Positions 443 to 34,117 of a stretch of 34,117 bases of DNA are shown here, piece by piece. This DNA is from a virus: positions 1-34,117 of the IMG/VR virus record IMGVR_UViG_3300038321_000129. One strand, 5' to 3'. The position numbers were made by a program, and so were the translations under genes. The notes beneath the pieces were generated by a model. The model had not been told where the DNA came from. It saw only the letters and a list, made by a program, of their open reading frames with translations, and did not search any database. The first letter of the stretch is position 1, and the number at the start of each line of letters is the position of its first letter.

Positions 443-683
443 TAGAGATAATAATTATATGGAGTCATGTAAGACGTTCCTGAAACGGATGAGGGTGTAA
501 TGATGCACGCAGGACAAAGTAAGGAACGGGATGGCTCTAAAATTAGATTATCGGTGTAGGTATAAGGACATCGCTAGAAAACAAACCCACTCAGGCGCGC
601 GTAACAAGATGGTGGCGGAAAAATAAGAACCCCTTGTCATGTTCCTTTGTTTGATCAACAGCCTACACTTATAATTTAATCAG

Positions 684-12312: not shown

Positions 12313-13089
12313 ATGCCTCTTGATTACGATACTGATAGATACGATGTTGGTGGATTTTCCACCACCCGCACATTACCTATACCACACCTTCTCGATTACG
12401 ATACGGATAGTTATGATGCTGGTGGATTTTCCACCACGCCGACCCCTATATTACCCTCATCATATCTAATCACCGCGCCAGAAATCCGTATATGTGACGA
12501 GAATTATATCCCGCGGATTGTCCTTGACGGATACAAAAATCTAACTTATACAGAACGACACAGAAACAGGGATTCATGGAGCTTTGAAGTATCCCGGCAA
12601 TCTAACTATGCACAATACCTCATCAAAGGACGAATTATACATTACGTTACTGGTGATTCTGTATATGCTTTGATTATCAAACAGATAGACGCAACCAAGG
12701 ATACTATCACGGTATCCGGCAACGAATACGCAGACGATTTATTATCCGCGAGGATTGCGCTTGTAGGCGTCCATGCCGGAGATGGCACGGACACAATACA
12801 GGATACCGCGGAAACCGCGTTTCGGCACTATGTCAACGGCAATATCATAGAAGCTACAGACACATATAGGCGTGACCCATTTCTGACTCTGGAACCTATA
12901 GATTATGGACGCGGCGAAACCGTGACGATATCAGCAAGATTCGATAATTTGCTTGACCTTTGCGAATCCATCGGGTCACTTGGAGGTATCGGGTGGCGGT
13001 CTGTAGTTGTAGACGACGACACAAAAGCGTGGGGTTGGTCTATCGTTATGTCCGTCGTTGAAGGAACCGATAAAGGGGAGGTAGTATAA
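12313..13089 (+). CDS. Baseplate or tail protein with a duplicated N-terminal LDYDTDxYDxGGFSTT module.
   Basis: 258 aa. The 24-aa module occurs twice (nt 12319-12366 and 12391-12438). Confidence 0.6.
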   Translation: MPLDYDTDRYDVGGFSTTRTLPIPHLLDYDTDSYDAGGFSTTPTPILPSSYLITAPEIRICDENYIPRIVLDGYKNLTYTERHRNRDSWSFEVSRQSNYAQYLIKGRIIHYVTGDSVYALIIKQIDATKDTITVSGNEYADDLLSARIALVGVHAGDGTDTIQDTAETAFRHYVNGNIIEATDTYRRDPFLTLEPIDYGRGETVTISARFDNLLDLCESIGSLGGIGWRSVVVDDDTKAWGWSIVMSVVEGTDKGEVV

Positions 13090-13580
13090 TGAGCTGGGTT
13101 ATTTTAAGTGAAGAGATGGGCACTGCGGTATTATCCCGGTTCGTTGATACTATCCCGGAATGCACGGTGGCGGTCGTTGGAGGTCAGGGAGAAGCCGCGT
13201 TACGAACCATACAGTATGTTGGTGATACAACCCTAACCGGGATTGGACGGCGGGAAGTATTCGTAGACGCGAGACACGCCAATACGCCAGACCTTCTGAC
13301 GACAGCGGGAGAAAAAGAGATCGCGGCGAATGTAGGGACCGTTATCGAAATGCGGTTTGCGGACTCATTAGGATGTGTCTACGGTGAAGATTTTAATCTT
13401 GGAGATATCGTCACGGTCGACGCGGATATATATGGGAAATATGATATCGAAGTTGTTTCAGCCGAAATCTACTATACTGCAAACAAGAGAGATATTATTA
13501 TAGTCCTTGGGAGTGAATCTACTAATATAGTCCGAATGATTAAGGACGTATCAAAGAACAATCCAGTATTACGGGTGTAA
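13089..13580 (+). CDS. Baseplate or tail protein.
   Basis: 163 aa. Coupled (TAATG) to the upstream gene. Confidence 0.55.
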   Translation: MSWVILSEEMGTAVLSRFVDTIPECTVAVVGGQGEAALRTIQYVGDTTLTGIGRREVFVDARHANTPDLLTTAGEKEIAANVGTVIEMRFADSLGCVYGEDFNLGDIVTVDADIYGKYDIEVVSAEIYYTANKRDIIIVLGSESTNIVRMIKDVSKNNPVLRV

Positions 13581-15618: not shown

Positions 15619-15649
15619 CGGGAAAATATAAAAAATTTAGAATTTCCCG
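15619..15649 (-). terminator. Intergenic hairpin (cgggaaa-N17-tttcccg) with T6 in the loop. Possible attenuator or terminator.
   Basis: 7-bp GC-containing stem spanning the stop codon of 15637..15879. Confidence 0.3.
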
Positions 15650-15879
15650 AGTTCTATACTTTCCCAGTTCCCCTGATCGATAACTCTATTTACATTGAAT
15701 GAATGGTATCTTACTACAATGTAGATTTTTTGTTCTCCAAGTTCTGGGTGTTCGTTGTCAATACCAGTAACATCTAAAGAAACCATTGTATTATCATAAC
15801 TTGTGTTCTTTACTGTGAATCCTTTTGCCGAGTATTTTTCTGCAAGTTCTTTCCCTTTTTCCTGTTGAAGTTTTGTCAT
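15637..15879 (-). CDS. Hypothetical protein (80 aa). First gene downstream of IR-A.
   Basis: Preceded by the conserved leader hairpin and SD (aggagaaactaaaATG-type). Confidence 0.65.
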   Translation of the reverse strand: MTKLQQEKGKELAEKYSAKGFTVKNTSYDNTMVSLDVTGIDNEHPELGEQKIYIVVRYHSFNVNRVIDQGNWESIELGKF

Positions 15880-15911
15880 TTTAGTTTCTCCATGTAGTTT
15901 GTCTTACTACA
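15880..15911 (-). promoter_or_regulatory. Conserved 5' leader hairpin plus SD, copy A.
   Basis: mRNA sense tgtagtaagacaaactacatggagaaactaaaATG. 6-bp stem tgtagt/actaca. Confidence 0.55.
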
Positions 15912-15930
15912 TATACTCTATTAGCTCTTA

Positions 15931-15945
15931 AAGTATATATACTTA
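15931..15945. promoter_or_regulatory. Palindromic TATA-like motif AAGTATATATACTTA.
   Basis: Exact consensus. Centre lies 59 nt upstream of ATG 15879. Confidence 0.55.
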
Positions 15946-16095
15946 TCTAAATCAATGGATTAAATTATAAGATTTTAATATTTGTTTATAATCAAGAGTT
16001 AGAAAGTATTCTGCGCTCAAATTGAGCCGCGTTTGTCTAAATACCTTAGTATATCTATTATATTATATATATATATATTATTATATATAATAATA

Positions 16096-16191
16096 AGAGT
16101 GTGTATTACTGTGGGGTTGTGAGGTGTCCGAACCACTCGTGCACAGTCCCACAGACGCGGGTGTAGTAAAAAGTTAGAATTTAATATTTTT
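16096..16191 (+). ncRNA. Candidate small RNA, or protein-binding cassette, in IR-A (strand uncertain).
   Basis: Conserved 5' agagtgtgt. Copy-specific GC-rich core with inverted ctgtggg (16109-16115) and cccacag (16148-16154). Conserved 3' ttagaatttaatattttt ending in T5. The AT-rich block lies immediately upstream. Confidence 0.3.
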
Positions 16192-16329
16192 GGAAAAAAT
16201 CTAAGGCTATACTAAACTCCAATCGTCCAACGGAGCTTAGTATGGGCTTGCCTTATTTTCTAATACCCTATTGTTTTTTATTATTTTTTATTATAATTAA
16301 ATAATTTAAGAGGATGGGTGAAAATGGGA

Positions 16330-16623
16330 TTATTTTTTGATCGTGCGCCTTGATAGTTCCTCCGTGATATTATTGTATGTCTTTTTCCATACCGGGGCGT
16401 CTATGGCTGGATTTCCTAAGTTATCGTTTTCCATATGCTCCTCGATGTCCTGTTTAATTACTGCCAGTGTATTATTTGATAAGTGTTTTATATGCTCATT
16501 GATAATCCCGCATACAGTATGCGGCGCATAGGTCATACGCCCTATCGCATACCGTTCTGCGTAAGTCAAAACCTCCTCGAAGTCAAACTTTGAGAGGGTT
16601 ACAGTTTCGCCAGTGGTTTTCAT
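16330..16623 (-). CDS. Hypothetical protein (97 aa).
   Basis: ATGA-coupled start at 16623 with a ggtggag SD. The track start 16635 lies inside the upstream gene. Confidence 0.6.
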   Translation of the reverse strand: MKTTGETVTLSKFDFEEVLTYAERYAIGRMTYAPHTVCGIINEHIKHLSNNTLAVIKQDIEEHMENDNLGNPAIDAPVWKKTYNNITEELSRRTIKK

Positions 16624-17075
16624 TTCTCCACCCACATCTTACACTTCGCCCCCGCGGATACGCTCATAGGCACGCTGGCGCGTTTTACGACACTTTGGTT
16701 GTTAGATGACTCTCTGATACGACAGCCGCCATAAAACGCGCTGTAGTGCTTACACGTGGCGCACGTGTCACTATAGATATACACGCCGCTTTCTGATATG
16801 TACTGCTTGCGTTTAGGGTTGACCCTCAGCGGATCGTTTGGGTATGGTAATGATGTCGCCGTAACCGCCTCTTGACGTGCTATACTAGCCGCGTTGCGGT
16901 TAGCTCGGGCATTTACTTTGGTCTCTTTTGCCCGTTTGTTGTAACATGCTTTACAAATCTTTCTATATCCAAGTTTCGTGTATGAGTCCCTCGGAAATTC
17001 GTTAAGCGGTTTCAGTTCGCCGCATTTGATACAGCGGTGTAGGGTCTTGAGGTTTGGTATGGTTGGTTCTGTCAT
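16620..17075 (-). CDS. Zn-ribbon protein (phage-type CxxC...LNEF...CKAC module).
   Basis: HRCIKCGELKPLNEFPRDSYTKLGYRKICKACYNKRAKE, plus C-terminal Cys pairs. Confidence 0.6.
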   Translation of the reverse strand: MTEPTIPNLKTLHRCIKCGELKPLNEFPRDSYTKLGYRKICKACYNKRAKETKVNARANRNAASIARQEAVTATSLPYPNDPLRVNPKRKQYISESGVYIYSDTCATCKHYSAFYGGCRIRESSNNQSVVKRASVPMSVSAGAKCKMWVEK

Positions 17076-17077
17076 GA

Positions 17078-17524
17078 TTATGTCTCCTTCTTGATACGTT
17101 CTATTTCTTTTTCATACTTCGATTTATGGGTTTTTCGTTGAGATTCATACATACATTCTTTCGAACAAAATCTTGGTAACCATCCCCGGTGATCATAATC
17201 ATAGTCTACCTGCGATTTACGACGCCTAAACTCGGTTCCGCATATCTCACAAGTAAATAATTCAAACTGTGCACCATATCCACCAACTCTAGGACAAGTT
17301 GGTTTGATTACACAGTCCCAATATTTCCTATAGGTATCTATACATTCCGTTCGGTGTAATCTATAATATGATTTGCAGTATTCTCCACGGCATGATTTAC
17401 AATAAAATTGTAATCCATCTTTCCTTGATTTATCAGCATAAAATTCGCTCAGCGGCAATTCTCGCCCGCATTTAGTGCATACTTTCGTTAACTCGTCTGT
17501 CATTTTTTGTTTGCTCCATGTCAT
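17078..17524 (-). CDS. Zn-ribbon protein (paralogous N-terminal module).
   Basis: CTKCGRELPLSEFYADKSRKDGLQFYCKSCRGEY. Further CxxC pairs (CEICGTEF, CSKEC). Confidence 0.6.
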   Translation of the reverse strand: MTWSKQKMTDELTKVCTKCGRELPLSEFYADKSRKDGLQFYCKSCRGEYCKSYYRLHRTECIDTYRKYWDCVIKPTCPRVGGYGAQFELFTCEICGTEFRRRKSQVDYDYDHRGWLPRFCSKECMYESQRKTHKSKYEKEIERIKKET

Positions 17525-20485: not shown

Positions 20486-20746
20486 TTACCAGTTTTCACC
20501 GTATAGACTATCCATTTTCTCCCAAAATTTCTTATCAATGCCAGCGAGATCGGAATACTTAGAATATTTGTTGTAAATCATAAGACCTTCTTCAGCATTT
20601 AAGATACTTTCTGCGGCATCTAACATCCCTTCAATTTTGAAGGAATGCCATCTAAAGTTTTTACGGTCTAGGTTCTCTACTGCTCTTTTGAGTCCGTTAA
20701 TTCGCTCATCAAAGAGTTCACAGAATTTATCATAGTTTCGTGTCAT
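20486..20746 (-). CDS. Hypothetical protein (86 aa) with the conserved leader.
   Basis: Preceded by the third copy of the promoter-leader module. Confidence 0.65.
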   Translation of the reverse strand: MTRNYDKFCELFDERINGLKRAVENLDRKNFRWHSFKIEGMLDAAESILNAEEGLMIYNKYSKYSDLAGIDKKFWEKMDSLYGENW

Positions 20747-20778
20747 TTTAGTTTCTCCTTGTAGTTCGTCTTACTACA
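20747..20778 (-). promoter_or_regulatory. Conserved 5' leader hairpin plus SD, copy C.
   Basis: mRNA sense tgtagtaagacgaactacaaggagaaactaaaATG. Confidence 0.55.
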
Positions 20779-20796
20779 ATAATATATATGTCGTAT

Positions 20797-20811
20797 AAGT
20801 ATATATACTTA
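20797..20811. promoter_or_regulatory. Palindromic TATA-like motif AAGTATATATACTTA.
   Basis: Exact consensus. Centre lies 58 nt upstream of ATG 20746. Confidence 0.55.
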
Positions 20812-21051
20812 ACTATTATAATACAAGCAATCTAAAAGAAGGTTGAGGATTTCAGGGCAGAAGAAAGACCCTTGCGAGGTATGGCAACGTGATATTAGGT
20901 ATCCTTAAGGTGTGTGGTATCTATGGCAAAGTGGAGATGTCCCGTTATACGTGTCATTATGGTTAGGAGGTTGTGTAAGAAGTTCCCCATAATCCTCAAC
21001 AAAGATAACTTGGTGTATTGGATATTAATGCTTTCGGTGAAAAAAAGAGGG

Positions 21052-23349: not shown

Positions 23350-23549
23350 CTGTCACACCACTCGATATCCACTAAATAAATTACCGTGCCCTTATCAGTT
23401 ATCATAACCGTCATACCTCCTTCTCCATAATAACTAATGTGCTTGTGCGCGGTCTCTCTGTCAAGATGGTTGCTCCGCAGACATCCATTCGGGTGTTTAT
23501 ACTCGCATCCTCGGCACTTTGATTCCAAAACTGCTATTAAGTTACACAT
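23340..23549 (-). CDS. Hypothetical small Cys-containing protein.
   Basis: 69 aa (CRGCEYKHPNGC). Overlaps both neighbouring genes by 8-10 nt. Confidence 0.5.
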   Translation of the reverse strand: MCNLIAVLESKCRGCEYKHPNGCLRSNHLDRETAHKHISYYGEGGMTVMITDKGTVIYLVDIEWCDRWN

Positions 23550-23838
23550 AATTCACCTCTAATTGTTCCCGGGAAACAATCAAATCATAATCTAAATTGT
23601 TGGCTTTGTGCGCGTTGCATCTATGACACAGCGCGCAAACATTATCCCGAGTATCTTTTCCGCCTTTTGATAATGGGATGACATGATCCCGGGTCGGTCG
23701 TTCTTCCTCCGTAAACTCCTTCCCGCATTTCAGACACTTATTACCTTGAGCTTTTACGATACGTTCGAATGCTTCGTTTGTTAGTCGGTCGGTTCGTTTT
23801 GTGTTGCGTATGGCGTTTTCTCTTTTTTTCTTTTTCAT
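23542..23838 (-). CDS. HNH endonuclease.
   Basis: CLKCGKEF...RDHVIPLSKGGKDTRDNVCALCHRCNAHK. Confidence 0.85.
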   Translation of the reverse strand: MKKKKRENAIRNTKRTDRLTNEAFERIVKAQGNKCLKCGKEFTEEERPTRDHVIPLSKGGKDTRDNVCALCHRCNAHKANNLDYDLIVSREQLEVNYV

Positions 23839-26110: not shown

Positions 26111-26180
26111 GTTTTTGTTCCTTTTTTGTTTCGTTTCGTTTGTAACAACATCTCTGCTGTTACTTGTCTATTAGATGTAT

Positions 26181-26195
26181 AGGTATATATACTTA
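26181..26195. promoter_or_regulatory. Palindromic TATA-like motif (aggtatatatactta).
   Basis: 14/15 match. Centre lies 78 nt from ATG 26110. Confidence 0.5.
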
Positions 26196-26216
26196 ACCAT
26201 TACCACGTTAACATAT

Positions 26217-26231
26217 TAGTATATATACTCA
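26217..26231. promoter_or_regulatory. Palindromic TATA-like motif (tagtatatatactca).
   Basis: 13/15 match. Centre lies 26 nt from ATG 26250, which has no SD. Confidence 0.5.
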
Positions 26232-26249
26232 TACATCTAATTAATAATC

Positions 26250-26480
26250 ATGAAGGTAGAAATAGTGTGCCCGTATTGCGGTCATGTATGGATGAGAAAC
26301 ACCGATACAAAAAGCAGAGCGTGTCCGAAATGTCACCGGATAGTAGTCCCAAGAATACCGCGGGATATGCTGACCTGTAACCGGTGCGGCAATGTCTGGG
26401 AGCCGAGAGCGTCCGGTAAGATACCCGGCACGTGTCCTAAATGTAAGAGCCCATACTGGAATAAGGAGCGGGTGAGGTGA
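26250..26480 (+). CDS. Double Zn-ribbon protein (76 aa). Candidate early regulator.
   Basis: CPYCGH...CPKCH and CNRCGN...CPKCKSPYW. Confidence 0.65.
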   Translation: MKVEIVCPYCGHVWMRNTDTKSRACPKCHRIVVPRIPRDMLTCNRCGNVWEPRASGKIPGTCPKCKSPYWNKERVR

Positions 26481-27109: not shown

Positions 27110-27124
27110 AAGTATATATACTTA
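27110..27124. promoter_or_regulatory. Palindromic TATA-like motif AAGTATATATACTTA.
   Basis: Exact consensus. Centre lies 41 nt from ATG 27076. Confidence 0.55.
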
Positions 27125-27869: not shown

Positions 27870-28321
27870 CGCGAAAACAGAAATATACACCTAAATGCAC
27901 GTCTGCCGAAAAGGCCGTTAGAATAGCCACGATTTACCGGTTACTCCTCAGCGGAATGCGTCGGCGCGAGGTGTTACAATATGTAACAGAGAAAACCGAT
28001 TGGGGGATAGAAACATCTGCCATTGACAAATACATAGCGGAAGCGACGAAAGAGATCAAGGAAGTCACCGCCGAAGAGATTGAAACCGCGCGGGGAATGG
28101 CATACAAACGACTCGACACGCTTTATTATAAATCGCTTTTAATCAACGATTATAAAACCGCACTTGCTGTCCAAAAAGAGATGAATGAACTGTTTGGACT
28201 GAAAATTATTAAACAGGAAATATCTGGGAATATGGGTGTCCAGTTTGTCGACGACGTGCCGAAAGACGCTGCCAAACCAGACCATACGGCTGACGACATA
28301 GATGTAGATGAAGGGTATTAA
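27866..28321 (+). CDS. terS: Putative terminase small subunit.
   Basis: 151 aa. Overlaps and immediately precedes TerL. No diagnostic motif. Confidence 0.45.
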   Translation: MTRKQKYTPKCTSAEKAVRIATIYRLLLSGMRRREVLQYVTEKTDWGIETSAIDKYIAEATKEIKEVTAEEIETARGMAYKRLDTLYYKSLLINDYKTALAVQKEMNELFGLKIIKQEISGNMGVQFVDDVPKDAAKPDHTADDIDVDEGY

Positions 28322-29981
28322 AGACCTCTTAACCCCTGCGTTTTATCACGCATGGAACGCTTTATTCAATCCCCTCTATACCTATTACATTTTCAAGGGC
28401 GGTAGGAACTCGGGGAAAAGCACGTTTGTATCTCGGTGTATTATCCTCCTCATGATGAAGTTCCCGGTTAACGCGCTCGTTGTCCGTAAAGTGGCGAATA
28501 CCCTGTCTGAATCCGTCTATGAACAGTTGATAGACTCCATCGAATCGTTAGGCGTAAACGATTACTGGAAACGGTCTAAGAGTCCGCTGGGACTGATGTA
28601 TATTCCGAGAGGGAACCGTATCATATTCAGGGGTGCAGACGATCCAGTTAAACTCAAATCCATCAAGTCTCACAAATTCCCCATTGCTATTTTATGGATT
28701 GAGGAGGTATCCGAGTTTAAAAATGAGGATGAAGTTAGCACGATCGTTAACTCCGTTATCCGGGCTGAGTTGCCGGAAGGGTTAAAATATTATATCTTTT
28801 ACAGTTATAACCCGCCCCGCGCGCTTAACTCATGGGTCAATGTCAAATACAATACTTCGCTGATACCTTCTGATACCTACGTTCACCATTCGACGGTCAA
28901 TGATAACCCATACCTCAGTAAACAGCTCAAAGCCACGCTCATAGAGCTTCAAGCCAAGAAACCCGATCGGTATAGATGGGAGTTCCTCGGTGAAGCTGTA
29001 GGCTCTGGAGTCATGCCGTTCGATAATCTTGTATTCCGCGAGATCACAGATGAGGAGATACGGACCTTTGATAATTATCGGTGTGGTATCGACTGGGGAT
29101 ATGCTAACGATGCGTTTGCGTATGTCCGCTGGCATTATGATCGAACACGCCGGAAGATATATGCAGTCGATGAACGGTATGGTGTGCGGCTCACTGACCG
29201 GTCAAACGCAGATTGGCTCAAGGCTAGGAGGTATGCGAACGACCATACGTATATCAAAGCCGATTCCGCCGAACCTAAGACGATAGACTTGTATCGGAAC
29301 GATTACAACGTGACGAATATAATTGCGGCTACTAAGGGACCCGGGAGTGTAGAGACTGGGGAGAAGTGGCTGAATGATGAGATATTAGAGATCGTTATTG
29401 ACGAGAGACGCACGCCGAATATCGGAAGGGAGTTTAGGACTATCGACTATGCCCGAACCAAGGACGGCACGATATTAAGCCGATTGGTGGATTTGGATAA
29501 TCATTGTATTGCTGAAGGGACTCTGATTACAACCGATAAAGGACAAAGACCGATCGAAACGTTAAGTATTGGTGATTGGGTCTTAACTAGAGACGGATTT
29601 AAACGAGTATTGAAGGTATGGGATAATGGGGTTAGGGACGTTGTTTCGGTTAAATTATCTAATGGTTATTCACTGACAGCAACCCACGATCATAAACTTT
29701 TCGTTAACTTAGAAAGGTTTGTGCCGATAGATGAAATAAGTTATACCGACACGCTATATTGTTTAAATAAATCGGTCGCAGAGGATGCGCAAATCGTATC
29801 AGTGCAAGACGCCGGAAAGATGCAGGTTTATGATTTAACCGTTGAAGATTCTCATGAATATTTTGCCAATGGAATCTTAGTCCACAATTGCATCGACGCC
29901 ACACGCTACGCATTCGAGGACGATATAGGCGTTGGAACTTACGAGGATTACGGGTTTATGTCCGGTGGTGGATTGATTTAA
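28308..29981 (+). CDS. terL: Terminase large subunit (PBSX/Terminase_3-like) interrupted by a mini-intein.
   Basis: Walker A FKGGRNSGKST. Walker B ILWIEEVSE. Nuclease Asp GIDWGYANDAF. The C-terminal nuclease motif DNH|CIDATRYAFED is split by 128 aa. Confidence 0.9.
   Translation: MKGIKDLLTPAFYHAWNALFNPLYTYYIFKGGRNSGKSTFVSRCIILLMMKFPVNALVVRKVANTLSESVYEQLIDSIESLGVNDYWKRSKSPLGLMYIPRGNRIIFRGADDPVKLKSIKSHKFPIAILWIEEVSEFKNEDEVSTIVNSVIRAELPEGLKYYIFYSYNPPRALNSWVNVKYNTSLIPSDTYVHHSTVNDNPYLSKQLKATLIELQAKKPDRYRWEFLGEAVGSGVMPFDNLVFREITDEEIRTFDNYRCGIDWGYANDAFAYVRWHYDRTRRKIYAVDERYGVRLTDRSNADWLKARRYANDHTYIKADSAEPKTIDLYRNDYNVTNIIAATKGPGSVETGEKWLNDEILEIVIDERRTPNIGREFRTIDYARTKDGTILSRLVDLDNHCIAEGTLITTDKGQRPIETLSIGDWVLTRDGFKRVLKVWDNGVRDVVSVKLSNGYSLTATHDHKLFVNLERFVPIDEISYTDTLYCLNKSVAEDAQIVSVQDAGKMQVYDLTVEDSHEYFANGILVHNCIDATRYAFEDDIGVGTYEDYGFMSGGGLI
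29505..29888 (+). mobile_element. Class-1 mini-intein (128 aa, no homing-endonuclease domain) in TerL.
   Basis: Block A CIAEGTLI. Block B LTATHDHKLF. Block F VYDLTVEDSHEYFANG. Block G ILVHN followed by +1 Cys. In frame (384 nt). AT-richer than the flanking extein. Confidence 0.85.
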
Positions 29982-32921: not shown

Positions 32922-33088
32922 GCCACACGAAACGAGTTTATAATAATCCACGAAGCGGGTTCTATGTTCACCCCTACCATATGGTATGTTGTGGGAACTG
33001 TGATTCGTGTAAAGATACTTCACTCGGTAAAAAATGGAGAATGGACCGTAAAAAAGAACTACTCAACGAATTTCACGAGGTATTATGA
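32918..33088 (+). CDS. Hypothetical small Cys-rich protein (56 aa; below the ORF-track cutoff).
   Basis: ATGA overlaps at both ends. MSHTKRVYNNPRSGFYVHPYHMVCCGNCDSCKDTSLGKKWRMDRKKELLNEFHEVL. Confidence 0.5.
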   Translation: MSHTKRVYNNPRSGFYVHPYHMVCCGNCDSCKDTSLGKKWRMDRKKELLNEFHEVL

Positions 33089-33363
33089 GCCGCCTGCCCG
33101 CACTCACACCCGACCAGAAACAGACGATCGCTGAGAACTTATACCTATTCCCAGCTGATATTATGCGCATTTCCGGGATGGAAACAGCTTCCAAAGGCCA
33201 AATAATCGCCGAGCAGAAGCGGATCCGGGAGGTAGACAACACCCCTGATTCCGAGTACCTATATTATATTTTAATAAATTATATCGAAAAACACGGATTA
33301 AAGGTTATTTACTCAAACGGAGTCTTTGGATGGCTTGAATCACTCAAACCACCCAAAAAATAA
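33085..33363 (+). CDS. Hypothetical protein (92 aa).
   Basis: Coupled start. Last gene before IR-B. Confidence 0.6.
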   Translation: MSRLPALTPDQKQTIAENLYLFPADIMRISGMETASKGQIIAEQKRIREVDNTPDSEYLYYILINYIEKHGLKVIYSNGVFGWLESLKPPKK

Positions 33364-33477
33364 TCTATTTGTTACTATACTTATCCGATTTATTTCTAAT
33401 ACCTATTAGAAAATAAGGCGAGCCATTTCTGAACCCCGTTCGCCGAATGCGCTTTTGTATGAACGTAGATTTTTTTT

Positions 33478-33565
33478 AAAAATATTAAATTCTTAAATTC
33501 TAATACCCCTCGTCCGTGGGGCCGCCCACCCGGCCCGGTGAGTCCCACAGGAACACACACACTCT
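33478..33565 (-). ncRNA. Candidate small RNA, or protein-binding cassette, in IR-B (strand uncertain).
   Basis: Minus strand reads agagtgtgt, then a GC-rich core (cctgtgggactcaccgggccgggtgggcggccccacgg), then ttagaatttaagaatttaatattttt. Same flanks as the IR-A cassette but a different core. Confidence 0.3.
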
Positions 33566-33714
33566 ATTATTATATATAATAATATATATATATATAATAT
33601 AATAGATATACTAGAGTAGATTGGCAAATCGCGCCCAAATTCAGCCCCGAATACTTTCTAACTTTTGATTATAAACAAATATTAAATTATAAGATTTTAA
33701 TATTATTGATAGAT

Positions 33715-33729
33715 AAGTATATATACTTA
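33715..33729. promoter_or_regulatory. Palindromic TATA-like motif AAGTATATATACTTA.
   Basis: Exact consensus. Centre lies 57 nt upstream of ATG 33779. Confidence 0.55.
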
Positions 33730-33746
33730 TACAACATATATAGTAT

Positions 33747-33778
33747 TGTAGTAATACAAACTACAAGGAGAAACTAAA
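33747..33778 (+). promoter_or_regulatory. Conserved 5' leader hairpin plus SD, copy B.
   Basis: tgtagtaatacaaactacaaggagaaactaaaATG. 6-bp stem tgtagt/actaca. Confidence 0.55.
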
Positions 33779-33973
33779 ATGAAATTCTACGAAAACTCAG
33801 AACTTGTAGCGACACTGAACAATGATGATGCAATTGAGCACTGTCTCAAATGCCCATATTGTTACCACAACGAGGATGGATCACACACATGCACTATAGG
33901 TGTTGAAGATTTTAACCTCGAAGAAAGGTTAGAATACGAAGATGACAACCAGCTTGAATGCTGGATGTCCTAA
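33779..33973 (+). CDS. Small acidic Cys-containing protein (64 aa). First gene downstream of IR-B.
   Basis: CLKCPYCYHNEDGSHTC. A T5 tract follows the stop. Confidence 0.6.
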   Translation: MKFYENSELVATLNNDDAIEHCLKCPYCYHNEDGSHTCTIGVEDFNLEERLEYEDDNQLECWMS

Positions 33974-34018: not shown

Positions 34019-34117
34019 GGAGATTAAAGAAATTATGATTGAGAAACAGAAAACACTTGATAATAGCCAATTGAAAACGCTTGATGATATCGCAAGTTCG
34101 TATTGTGAATTAGAGTG
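34019..34117. repeat. Terminal direct repeat, copy 2 (identical to 1..99).
   Basis: Verbatim duplicate of the window start. It contains the SD and the first 83 nt of ORF 17..217. Confidence 0.95.

Follow-up and report, generated by a model that had tools for sequence, protein, structure and literature searches.

A paired operon-boundary module in a probable methanogen virus, with a candidate structured RNA at its core

The repeat pair and the signals at its ends

We analysed IMG/VR virus record IMGVR_UViG_3300038321_000129, a stretch of 34,117 nucleotides (nt) hereafter called the window. Our subject is a pair of long inverted repeats in this DNA, IR-A (positions 15877-16265) and IR-B (positions 33404-33781). 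An earlier note, made from the sequence by eye, had described the two as collinear. Both a self-repeat search and direct alignment recovered the pair. In the search, inverted segments I1, I2, I4 and I6 together cover 15876-16265 against 33404-33782. Segment I1 matches 15959-16095 to 33565-33701 (137 nt, 85%), I2 matches 16160-16265 to 33404-33509 (106 nt, 75%), and I4 and I6 make up the promoter-proximal end. Alignment of 15860-16310 (plus strand) with 33370-33800 (minus strand), using MAFFT, gave a mean column identity of 85%. The AT-rich blocks are long and identical, in stretches of up to ~60 nt, and three GC-rich segments are diverged. We refer to the latter as cassettes 1 to 3. The similarity of the pair is far beyond chance.

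One end of each copy is the start codon of a small gene (CAT/ATG at 15877-15879 on the minus strand and at 33779-33781 on the plus strand). The other end is a shared block, GCCTTATTTTCTAATA, at 16265 or 33404. The layout of open reading frames (ORFs) places each copy at an operon boundary, upstream of the small gene, as had been proposed. The repeat is indeed longer than a promoter needs to be, and the self-repeat search agreed that it is the only large repeat in the genome. Small ORFs inside the copies are not common to A and B; for example, the 54-aa ORF at 33396-33560 has no A counterpart. Searching the whole window with the Rfam 15 covariance models (E <= 1) gave no match within 15877-16265 or 33404-33781. 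The matches obtained were DUF3800-X (463-536, an unrelated sequence) and a sub-threshold miRNA match at 26170-26241. ARAGORN found no tRNA or tmRNA in the element. The idea that the cassettes are antisense guides was rejected, since no other part of the virus is complementary to them over 13 nt or more.

Bases 1-99 of the window are identical to bases 34019-34117. Hence, the genome is a circularly assembled one, of 34,018 bp, and the shared ends are the circularisation overlap. The same circle, with the same flanks and arrangement, is also found in ERZ27283065 (a 34,137-bp contig) and ERZ724037 (a 34,073-bp contig), and these contigs fit one circle with different k-mer overlaps. Assembly of the circle in two other datasets excludes the chimerism against which the earlier note had cautioned, and a related virus holds both copies. 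On the 34,018-bp circle, 17.5 kb and 16.5 kb separate the copies.

The anatomy is described in the plus-strand orientation of IR-A, which is antisense to the flanking genes. The order is the CAT of the small gene, its Shine-Dalgarno sequence (SD), a hairpin of the 5' untranslated region (5'-UTR), a TATA palindrome, a 21-nt near-palindrome (ATTAAA-N9-TTTAAT), TTTAATATTTGTTTA, GTTAGAAARTATTC, cassette 1, an AT-rich quasi-palindrome of ~57 nt, GTGTATTACTGTGGGG, the GC-rich cassette 2, a block that we call block 6, ATTTTT-RR-AAAAAA, cassette 3 and GCCTTATTTTCTAATA. Block 6 reads (T)TA(T/G)AATTTAAT in A and TAAGAATTTAAT in B. The features of IR-A and its flanks are listed below; P1, P2, P4 and P5 are predicted helices, and BRE denotes the TFB-recognition element of an archaeal promoter.

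15637-15879, minus strand: 80-aa gene from the ORF list; its predicted promoter is at the left end of IR-A
15884-15911, minus strand: SD GGAGAAAC and 5'-UTR hairpin TGTAGT-N7-ACTACA (15893-15911) of the 80-aa gene
15931-15944, both strands: palindrome AAGTATATATACTT, with BRE-proximal AAG and TATATATA box; probable promoter of the 80-aa gene, possibly bidirectional
15959-15970, plus strand: P1 5' arm ATTAAATTATAA, the left half of the near-palindrome 15959-15979
15977-16010, plus strand: P2 helix, 15977-15983 with 16004-16010, blocks TTTAATATTTGTTTA and GTTAGAAAGTATTC
16012-16047, plus strand: cassette 1, with a 13-nt dyad GCTCAAATTGAGC (16015-16027)
16049-16104, plus strand: P4, a long AU-rich hairpin made of the AT-only block 16056-16096 and GU-rich flanks GTATAT.../...GTGTGT
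16105-16170, plus strand: cassette 2/P5, a GC-rich hairpin pairing CTGTGGGGTTGTG (16109-16121) with CACAGTCCCACAG (16142-16154), after GTGTATTACTGTGGGG
16174-16191, plus strand: P1 3' arm TTAGAATTTAAT (16174-16185), then ATTTTT; candidate first RNA 3' end (oligo-T)
16194-16254, minus strand: cassette 3, predicted terminator of the replication-gene operon; hairpin 16203-16254, then GATTTTTT (plus-strand A-run 16194-16199)
16233-16265, plus strand: small hairpin GAGCT-N7-GGCTT, then GCC-TTATTTTCT, within GCCTTATTTTCTAATA; candidate second RNA 3' end
16330-16635, minus strand: phrog_11947, last gene of the operon upstream of IR-A

The equivalent features of IR-B are as follows.

33085-33363, plus strand: last gene (92 aa) of the portal/Mu-F operon upstream of IR-B
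33404-33477, plus strand (gene-sense): cassette 3 hairpins, then TAGATTTTTTTT (T-run 33470-33477)
33436-33420, minus strand: boundary hairpin GGGTT-N7-GGCTC, then GCC-TTATTTT
33478-33495, minus strand: P1 3' arm TAAGAATTTAAT (33495-33484), then ATTTTT (33483-33478)
33499-33554, minus strand: cassette 2, a GC-rich and G-rich hairpin region, CTGTGGG...CCCACGG
33555-33611, minus strand: P4 AU-rich hairpin, with AT-only block 33565-33604
33613-33648, minus strand: cassette 1, with dyad GCTGAATTTGGGC
33681-33701, minus strand: near-palindrome, with P1 5' arm ATTAAAATCTTA (33701-33690) and its core flipped relative to IR-A
33715-33728, both strands: BRE/TATA palindrome AAGTATATATACTT, probable promoter of the 64-aa gene
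33747-33973, plus strand: 5'-UTR hairpin (33747-33765), SD GGAGAAAC (33767-33774) and 64-aa gene (33779-33973)

The virus is a tailed one. It encodes a large terminase that contains an intein, a tape-measure protein, a Mu-F-like head protein, Dit and a helicase. We found no DNA similarity to known phages. The tailed virus probably infects a methanogenic archaeon, to judge by several features of its sequence. Among 50,697 phage genomes, the only record matched by its capsid and portal is that of a Methanomicrobiales-assigned virus. The ORF at 26250-26480 (plus strand, 76 aa), which lies in a divergent control region, has a TFIIB-type zinc ribbon (PF08271, 33.7 bits against a cutoff of 29). This zinc-ribbon protein has an archaeal signature and may modulate host transcription factor B (TFB) or RNA polymerase. 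The Pfam domain PF27228 (MTBMA_p00010_2nd) is found in relatives with ~41% capsid identity and the same gene order; we take the domain name to come from a Methanothermobacter marburgensis plasmid locus tag. The source samples are presumably landfill, digester and fermentation metagenomes, judging by record names (e.g. "fermentation metagenome") and the Joint Genome Institute sample series. One point weighs against an archaeal host: the large terminase is 58% identical to the terminases of Brevibacillus and Geobacillus (Bacillota) phages, and a bacterial host is thus possible. Given the capsid and portal, zinc-ribbon, PF27228 and sample evidence, we read promoter and terminator signals by archaeal rules, and consider this choice likely to be correct.

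About nine operon starts, which is nearly all of them, have the 14-nt palindrome AAGTATATATACTT in almost the same form 35-55 nt before the ATG. The sites begin at 15931, 17561, 20797, 26181, 26217, 27110, 27145, 30710 and 33715, with a weaker one at 428, and are usually extended to (A)GATAAG-TATATATA-CTT. This sequence is probably the BRE/TATA promoter of the virus. In methanogens, BRE/TATA elements lie ~19-22 nt from the transcription start site (TSS) (PMC5378194). With this spacing, the predicted TSS of the small gene falls at the base of the 5'-UTR hairpin TGTAGT-N7-ACTACA. The promoter and 5'-UTR block is present three times in the genome. The third copy (20741-20816, minus strand; D10 95% and I3 93% to 33709-33782) has its TATA palindrome at 20797-20810, upstream of an 86-aa gene (20486-20746), and consists of this block only, without the ~300-bp core. 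The product of the 80-aa gene at IR-A has no Pfam or PHROG family; an identical protein is encoded in 9 other contigs. Bacterial signals were rejected, as sigma-70-like and intrinsic-terminator scans did no better than on shuffled sequence. A TTGTCT/TTGCCA-17-TATTAT site of conserved position was set aside because the host evidence pointed to archaea.

Sequence and strand asymmetry identify cassette 3 as a terminator of the upstream operon. On the sense strand, cassette 3 of IR-A folds with -24.3 kcal/mol (z = -3.3), and the consensus of A-type cassettes 3, computed using RNAalifold, reaches -22.4 kcal/mol in sense against -15.2 kcal/mol in antisense. The sense strand folds better in 11 of the 12 full copies described below; in the copy of contig L012, three G.U pairs are possible in sense only. 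A run of T6-T8 directly follows the gene-sense hairpin, downstream of the last gene of the operon, as expected of a terminator. A generic bacterial terminator scan gave no match here because loop and stem exceed its limits. The arrangement resembles archaeal signals in both parts, with AAG-TATATATA-CTT 35-55 nt before start codons and T5-T8 after operon-end hairpins. The virus differs in that its TATA element is a perfect 14-nt palindrome, kept near-unchanged at about nine sites, and the TSS is a predicted one.

Related copies and base pairing in the core

Relatives were gathered by protein-guided and pattern-guided searches. A syntenic circular virus of 37.7 kb, ~83% identical to the window (contigs L001, L008 and L012), has orthologous A and B copies, ~20.0 kb and 17.7 kb apart. 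The scaffold persists in related viral contigs. In total there are 17 distinct copies, which come from 5 or more sample series. These copies split cleanly into an A type and a B type; the 12 full copies were used for the analysis of pairing. The earlier note had described the cassettes as diverged or unrelated inserts, swapped within a conserved scaffold. They are diverged, but they are neither unrelated nor swapped: they are homologous, specific to type and conserved within each lineage. Cassettes of the same type are 81-89% identical, and those of A and B are 50-59% identical to each other (for cassette 1, 86-89% and 59%). Hence, A and B separated before these viruses diverged from one another, and the cassettes are homologues that have diverged. 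The AT block behaves differently. Between the A and B copies of the window it is 93% identical, against 84% and 78% to their own orthologues, which indicates gene conversion between the copies (concerted evolution).

The TATA palindrome and the element are absent from the distant relatives L003, L004, L007, vir524 and L030-L032, save for one palindrome match with 2 mismatches in L004. The element is thus confined to a narrow clade, and our comparison reaches the ~83% clade at its deepest. Several contigs place the element in other contexts. In L024, a complete B-type element is joined to the genes that follow IR-A in the window. In L026, a B element is joined to a promoter resembling that at 27110, in L021 an A-type element lies upstream of a Sak4 operon, and L023 looks like a hybrid of B on the left and A on the right. 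From these contexts we conclude that the repeated promoter block and the AT block are recombination junctions, and the promoter block appears to be a junction for gene-cassette exchange in the clade. Contigs L039 and L040 carry the identical 80-aa gene and TATA promoter, back-to-back with the promoter of another gene, without the core. Together with the third promoter copy of the window, which also lacks it, this shows that the core is dispensable for the promoter and is a module of its own. Pattern scans beyond these copies gave little. A 32-nt block found no match among viral sequences, and the last viral scan gave 22 low-complexity chance matches, including the AT-rich L056 and L057 ((TA)n promoter regions, unrelated). 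A scan of a genome collection with a block-6 pattern, fitting B-type copies and the A copy of the window only, gave a single chance match. A match in L006 (a metagenome-assembled genome of Bacilli) was rejected as a chance match within coding sequence.

In the RNAalifold prediction, block 6 is complementary to the half of the near-palindrome nearest the promoter, ~205 nt away. In the resulting 12-nt helix, P1 (alignment columns 13-24 with 229-240), 96.5% of cells are paired across the 12 full copies, compared with 28-50% when the partners are slid by 1-3 columns. Its covariation score was reached by 0 of 500 shuffles. Three pairs are changed on both sides, by exchange of A-U with C-G and of A-U with U-A between the A and B types and by an independent change of U-A to A-U in copy c15. 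Every A copy has the 9-nt core of the near-palindrome in the orientation opposite to that of the B copies, and the covariation of P1 means that this flip is matched by changes in block 6. The 24-nt sequence ATTAAATTATAAGATTTTAATATT is identical on the plus strand at 15959-15982 and 33681-33704, though both lie inside inverted repeats; the flipped core accounts for this.

Helix P2, which joins blocks 2 and 3, is paired in 100% of cells, and 3 U.G cells are valid on the antisense strand only. Over P2-P4 as a whole, 95.1% of cells are paired, compared with 30-60% for slid partners, and 4 pairs have changes on both sides. Three pairs of P4 are changed on both sides between lineages. Protein binding does not readily account for type-specific compensatory change between positions 205 nt apart, in one genome with one set of proteins. 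Hence, we favour a folded single-stranded nucleic acid. Cassette 2 was also examined for a single hairpin register common to all copies; this was rejected, as the lineages use different registers. In the aligned copies, cassette 2 often has a canonical G-quadruplex motif, which is not conserved across all of them. In IR-B of the window, at 33512-33547 (minus strand), it is GGG-N7-GGG-N2-GGG-N1-GGG; in copies of lineage B1, such as that of L001, it is G5-N4-G6-N1-G3-N5-G3. In copies of lineage A1, such as that of L012, the motif is on the opposite (sense) strand, and IR-A of the window is without it.

Several observations favour the antisense strand for such a fold. By use of G.U pairs, the outer stem of P4 is paired in 88.9% of cells in antisense against 58.3% in sense, and P2b in 95.8% against 62.5%. 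Cassette 2 folds better in antisense in 11 of 12 copies. On the same strand, the ATTTTT directly after P1 is invariant in all 12. In the sense direction the T6-T8 run precedes P1; transcripts of the upstream operon should therefore stop before the core. At the right end of the repeat lies the boundary hairpin (GAGCT-N7-GGCTY in antisense) with GCC-TTATTTT. It pairs in 11 of 12 copies, many through G.U; as read from the aligned copies, c15 has a compensated change of A-U to G-C. Three considerations temper this choice of strand. The structure was derived on the antisense strand, so that its G.U advantage is inflated, and G-rich strands always gain from G.U pairs. Whole-core RNAalifold energies differ little between the strands (-17.0 vs -16.1). 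The z-scores of single sequences reach significance on either strand (-2.4 to -3.9), as expected for any inverted-repeat DNA; on this ground we rejected folding energy alone as a means of choosing the strand.

In sum, the two modules are a real, ancient and conserved pair, with a sense terminator, a recurring promoter motif, a 5'-UTR hairpin, helices under compensatory change and exchange of the AT block.

Candidate functions of the core

We suggest that the core is a structured non-coding RNA of ~215-230 nt (~300 nt to the second terminator), divergent from the small gene, and give this reading a probability of roughly 0.45. The putative RNA would span ~15960-16191 on the plus strand and 33700-33478 on the minus strand. 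Each copy would then be a composite boundary module between two transcription units. The hairpin and T-run of cassette 3 would end and stabilise the transcript of the upstream operon, and the BRE/TATA promoter and 5'-UTR hairpin would serve the downstream small gene. The RNA would start at, or just past, the symmetric AAG-TATATATA-CTT promoter, and would end at the ATTTTT after P1 or, by read-through, at the GCC-TTATTTT hairpin of the right boundary. Its predicted fold comprises the closing helix P1, the AU helix P2, a small hairpin in cassette 1, the AU-rich P4 and a type-specific GC-rich P5. Copies A and B would be old paralogues whose conserved scaffold consists of helices, junctions and promoter and terminator signals. 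The cassettes would be hairpins free to diverge while still folding, and gene conversion within the genome would keep the AT block nearly identical. Such an RNA might serve as a decoy for a host factor, act as a regulator or, as a transcript, activate or prime replication.

A number of points count against an RNA of this kind. The only candidate for its promoter is the symmetric TATA palindrome, and divergent genes elsewhere own two back-to-back palindromes (26181/26217 and 27110/27145), which disfavours strong bidirectionality of one. The standard distance from TATA to TSS puts the divergent TSS ~3-7 nt inside the 5' arm of P1; the RNA would then include only 6-9 bp of P1, though with all three covarying pairs. 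Effectively independent lineages number only ~four (window-A-like, A1, B1 and B2), which limits the power of the covariation analysis, and pairing comes easily to AT-rich sequence. The register of P5 differs among lineages. Finally, a pure A/U tract of 45 nt is unusual in a functional RNA.

The main rival reading is a duplicated replication origin. The AT-only tract, a palindrome, would be the DNA-unwinding element (DUE), flanking sites would bind an initiator, for example the DUF3987 protein, and the GC hairpins would act as clamps. The tract (41 nt at 16056-16096; also 33565-33604) is among very few AT-only runs of at least 25 nt in the genome, and inverted 12-nt sites lie ~100 bp either side of it. 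The proposed initiator sites, TTTAAT(ATTT), number three per copy and are inverted across the AT block. The two inverted copies are nearly opposite each other on the circle, here and in the 37.7-kb relative. The virus encodes a primase/helicase-like protein, Sak4, SSB and an exonuclease, and no origin has been identified. There are precedents in HSV-1 oriS, SPP1 oriL/oriR and P4 ori/crr. The oriS of herpes simplex virus 1 (HSV-1) is an AT-rich palindrome between inverted UL9 boxes, present in two inverted copies between divergent promoters. Like HSV-1 oriS/oriL and SPP1 oriL/oriR, the element has an AT-rich palindrome, inverted flanking sites, a regulatory setting between transcription units and two copies per genome (inverted, as for oriS). 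Unlike them, it has no recognisable initiator boxes or iterons, its arms co-vary by type, its helices use G.U pairs and no initiator gene is adjacent. An iteron array or boxes resembling origin recognition boxes were not found, only the three TTTAAT half-sites per copy; the scans gave no Orc1/Cdc6 or Rep gene, adjacent or elsewhere, and the DUF3987 primase/helicase-like gene is 2.6 kb from IR-A and ~13 kb from IR-B. Type-specific compensatory changes in the P1 arms are not expected of sites that share one initiator in one genome, and G.U-dependent helices make no sense in duplex DNA. A DUE requires AT-richness, yet here the sequence itself is near-invariant. GC skew tracks gene orientation and gives no independent signal. 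We consider an origin unlikely. The RNA and origin models could also hold together, if a transcript activates or primes an origin.

A purely cis-acting DNA, with no functional RNA, seems to us decidedly improbable. It would be a long control region for two co-regulated (e.g. late) promoters, with a bidirectional insulator or terminator. Both copies do lie directly upstream of TATA promoters, one heading the capsid/tail cluster and the other the four small genes that end the leftward arm. The conserved AT-rich blocks contain dyads (the 21-nt near-palindrome and the 13-nt dyad of cassette 1), and the face-to-face T-runs, ATTTTT-GG-AAAAAA, would block transcription from both sides. However, the gene and its TATA promoter occur without the core in L039/L040, as does the third promoter copy at 20741-20816. 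Protein binding would leave the covariation of P1 and P4 unexplained, and the A/B differences would need different regulators for two sites of one genome. Lower still is the chance that the repeats serve as a recombination substrate, by which Sak4 and the exonuclease flip ~17-kb half-genomes or swap gene cassettes, in the manner of the inverted repeats of the 2-micron plasmid or of chloroplasts. The repeats are inverted and nearly opposite, with identical stretches of up to ~60 nt; L024 and the hybrid-looking L023 suggest past exchange, L021 and L026 have further contexts, and many contigs break inside the element. The 2-micron FRT repeats are likewise large and inverted and halve a circle. 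Here, by contrast, three independent assemblies of the genome have one arrangement, and the only possible sign of such exchange is the relative L024. No site-specific recombinase was found among the scanned ORFs, and a substrate needs no internal helices, covariation or type-specific cassettes. It is more probable that recombination results from the repeat than that the repeat exists for it. Least credible of all is a fimS-like inverton, or an element like a miniature inverted-repeat transposable element (MITE), with P1 as the terminal inverted repeats. As in fimS invertons, short inverted repeats bracket a segment, here of ~205 bp, AT-rich and able to hold promoters; the 12-nt arms co-vary, and the element is found in several gene contexts. 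Yet all 12 full copies have one internal orientation, and no serine or tyrosine recombinase or transposase is encoded in any scanned ORF. Similarity between A and B runs past both P1 arms, to the ATG and GCCTTATTTTCTAATA, so that the arms are not the ends of the element, and no target-site duplication was seen at the P1 boundaries. Each genome has only two copies, and the block-6 scan of the genome collection gave only the single chance match.

Pfam and PHROG scans of the ORFs found no integrase, invertase, reverse transcriptase (RT), Cas or Par/partition genes. Retron, CRISPR and recombinase ideas were rejected on this basis (no RT, Cas, integrase or invertase). A diversity-generating retroelement with template and variable repeats was also rejected: in addition to the missing RT, the A/B differences are of all types and cluster in GC-rich segments.

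The virus genome and the significance of the locus

Further genes of the virus encode a DUF3987 primase/helicase-like protein, Sak4, SSB, an exonuclease, a methyltransferase and several HNH endonucleases. A paralogous pair of HNH/endonuclease VII-like genes (16620-17075 and 17078-17524, minus strand) lies just upstream of IR-A, and a third HNH gene (23542-23838, minus strand) is in the replication module; this density of homing-type nucleases is unusual for 34 kb. The large terminase gene (28308-29981, plus strand) has its intein, with Hint/Intein_splicing domains, at residues ~400-527, and the 58% identity noted above covers the N-terminal 397 aa. The terminase is Bacillota-phage-like but the capsid and portal are only methanogen-virus-like, which suggests a mosaic origin for the packaging gene. 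The two halves of the Pfam family Sipho_Gp37 fall on adjoining plus-strand ORFs, with profile positions 1-203 in 12313-13089 and 213-369 in 13089-13580. Either a tail gene has been split or there is a frameshift. The first of these ORFs contains a 48-nt repeat (12318-12365 and 12390-12437, 90% identical). The Rfam DUF3800-X RNA match at 463-536 (plus strand) is in the small-gene region downstream of IR-B, and scores 54.1 bits (gathering score 38.2, E = 3e-9); no DUF3800 protein was found among the scanned ORFs. Like our element, it is a GC-rich structured island in an AT-rich viral intergenic region, and differs in that the sequences are unrelated.

According to the earlier note, the repeat pair fits no element class known to its author. 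This needs softening: each copy parses into a terminator, a candidate structured-RNA gene or origin, and an archaeal-type promoter. These parts (promoter, terminator, viral non-coding RNA or origin) are of known kinds, and the absence of an Rfam match for the core stands, so that the specific family is without a match there. Adenovirus VA RNA I/II and EBER1/2 of Epstein-Barr virus are paired viral non-coding RNAs of ~160-250 nt, encoded in tandem and transcribed by eukaryotic Pol III. The predicted RNAs would be like them in being two paralogues with their own promoter, an oligo-U 3' end, a closing helix, a conserved scaffold and paralogue-specific stem-loops. They differ in that the host is probably archaeal, the copies are inverted ~17 kb apart, each lies between a terminator and the promoter of a protein gene, and much of the RNA would be AU-only. 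We know of no structured non-coding RNA described from methanogen viruses, and a literature search found none. To our knowledge, the promoters, terminators and origins of methanogen viruses are almost unmapped.

We tentatively propose, at rather less than even odds, that the core represents a new virus-borne family of structured non-coding RNAs (~215-300 nt) in a methanogen virus. Its paralogues would share an AU-rich scaffold and a co-varying terminal helix, and each would have its own GC-rich, partly G-quadruplex-prone hairpin. The family would be an archaeal-virus counterpart of the VA RNA and EBER pairs, possibly opening the AT palindrome for replication. The locus offers a compact and testable case, combining a palindromic BRE/TATA promoter, a hairpin/T-run terminator, a compensated core of ~205 nt and partly concerted paralogues. 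Should the RNA prove true, it would be a new viral RNA family with two specificity variants. Should the core be an origin, the two copies would be a mapped candidate origin pair of an archaeal tailed virus. Either outcome would be useful for genetic tools in methanogen viruses.

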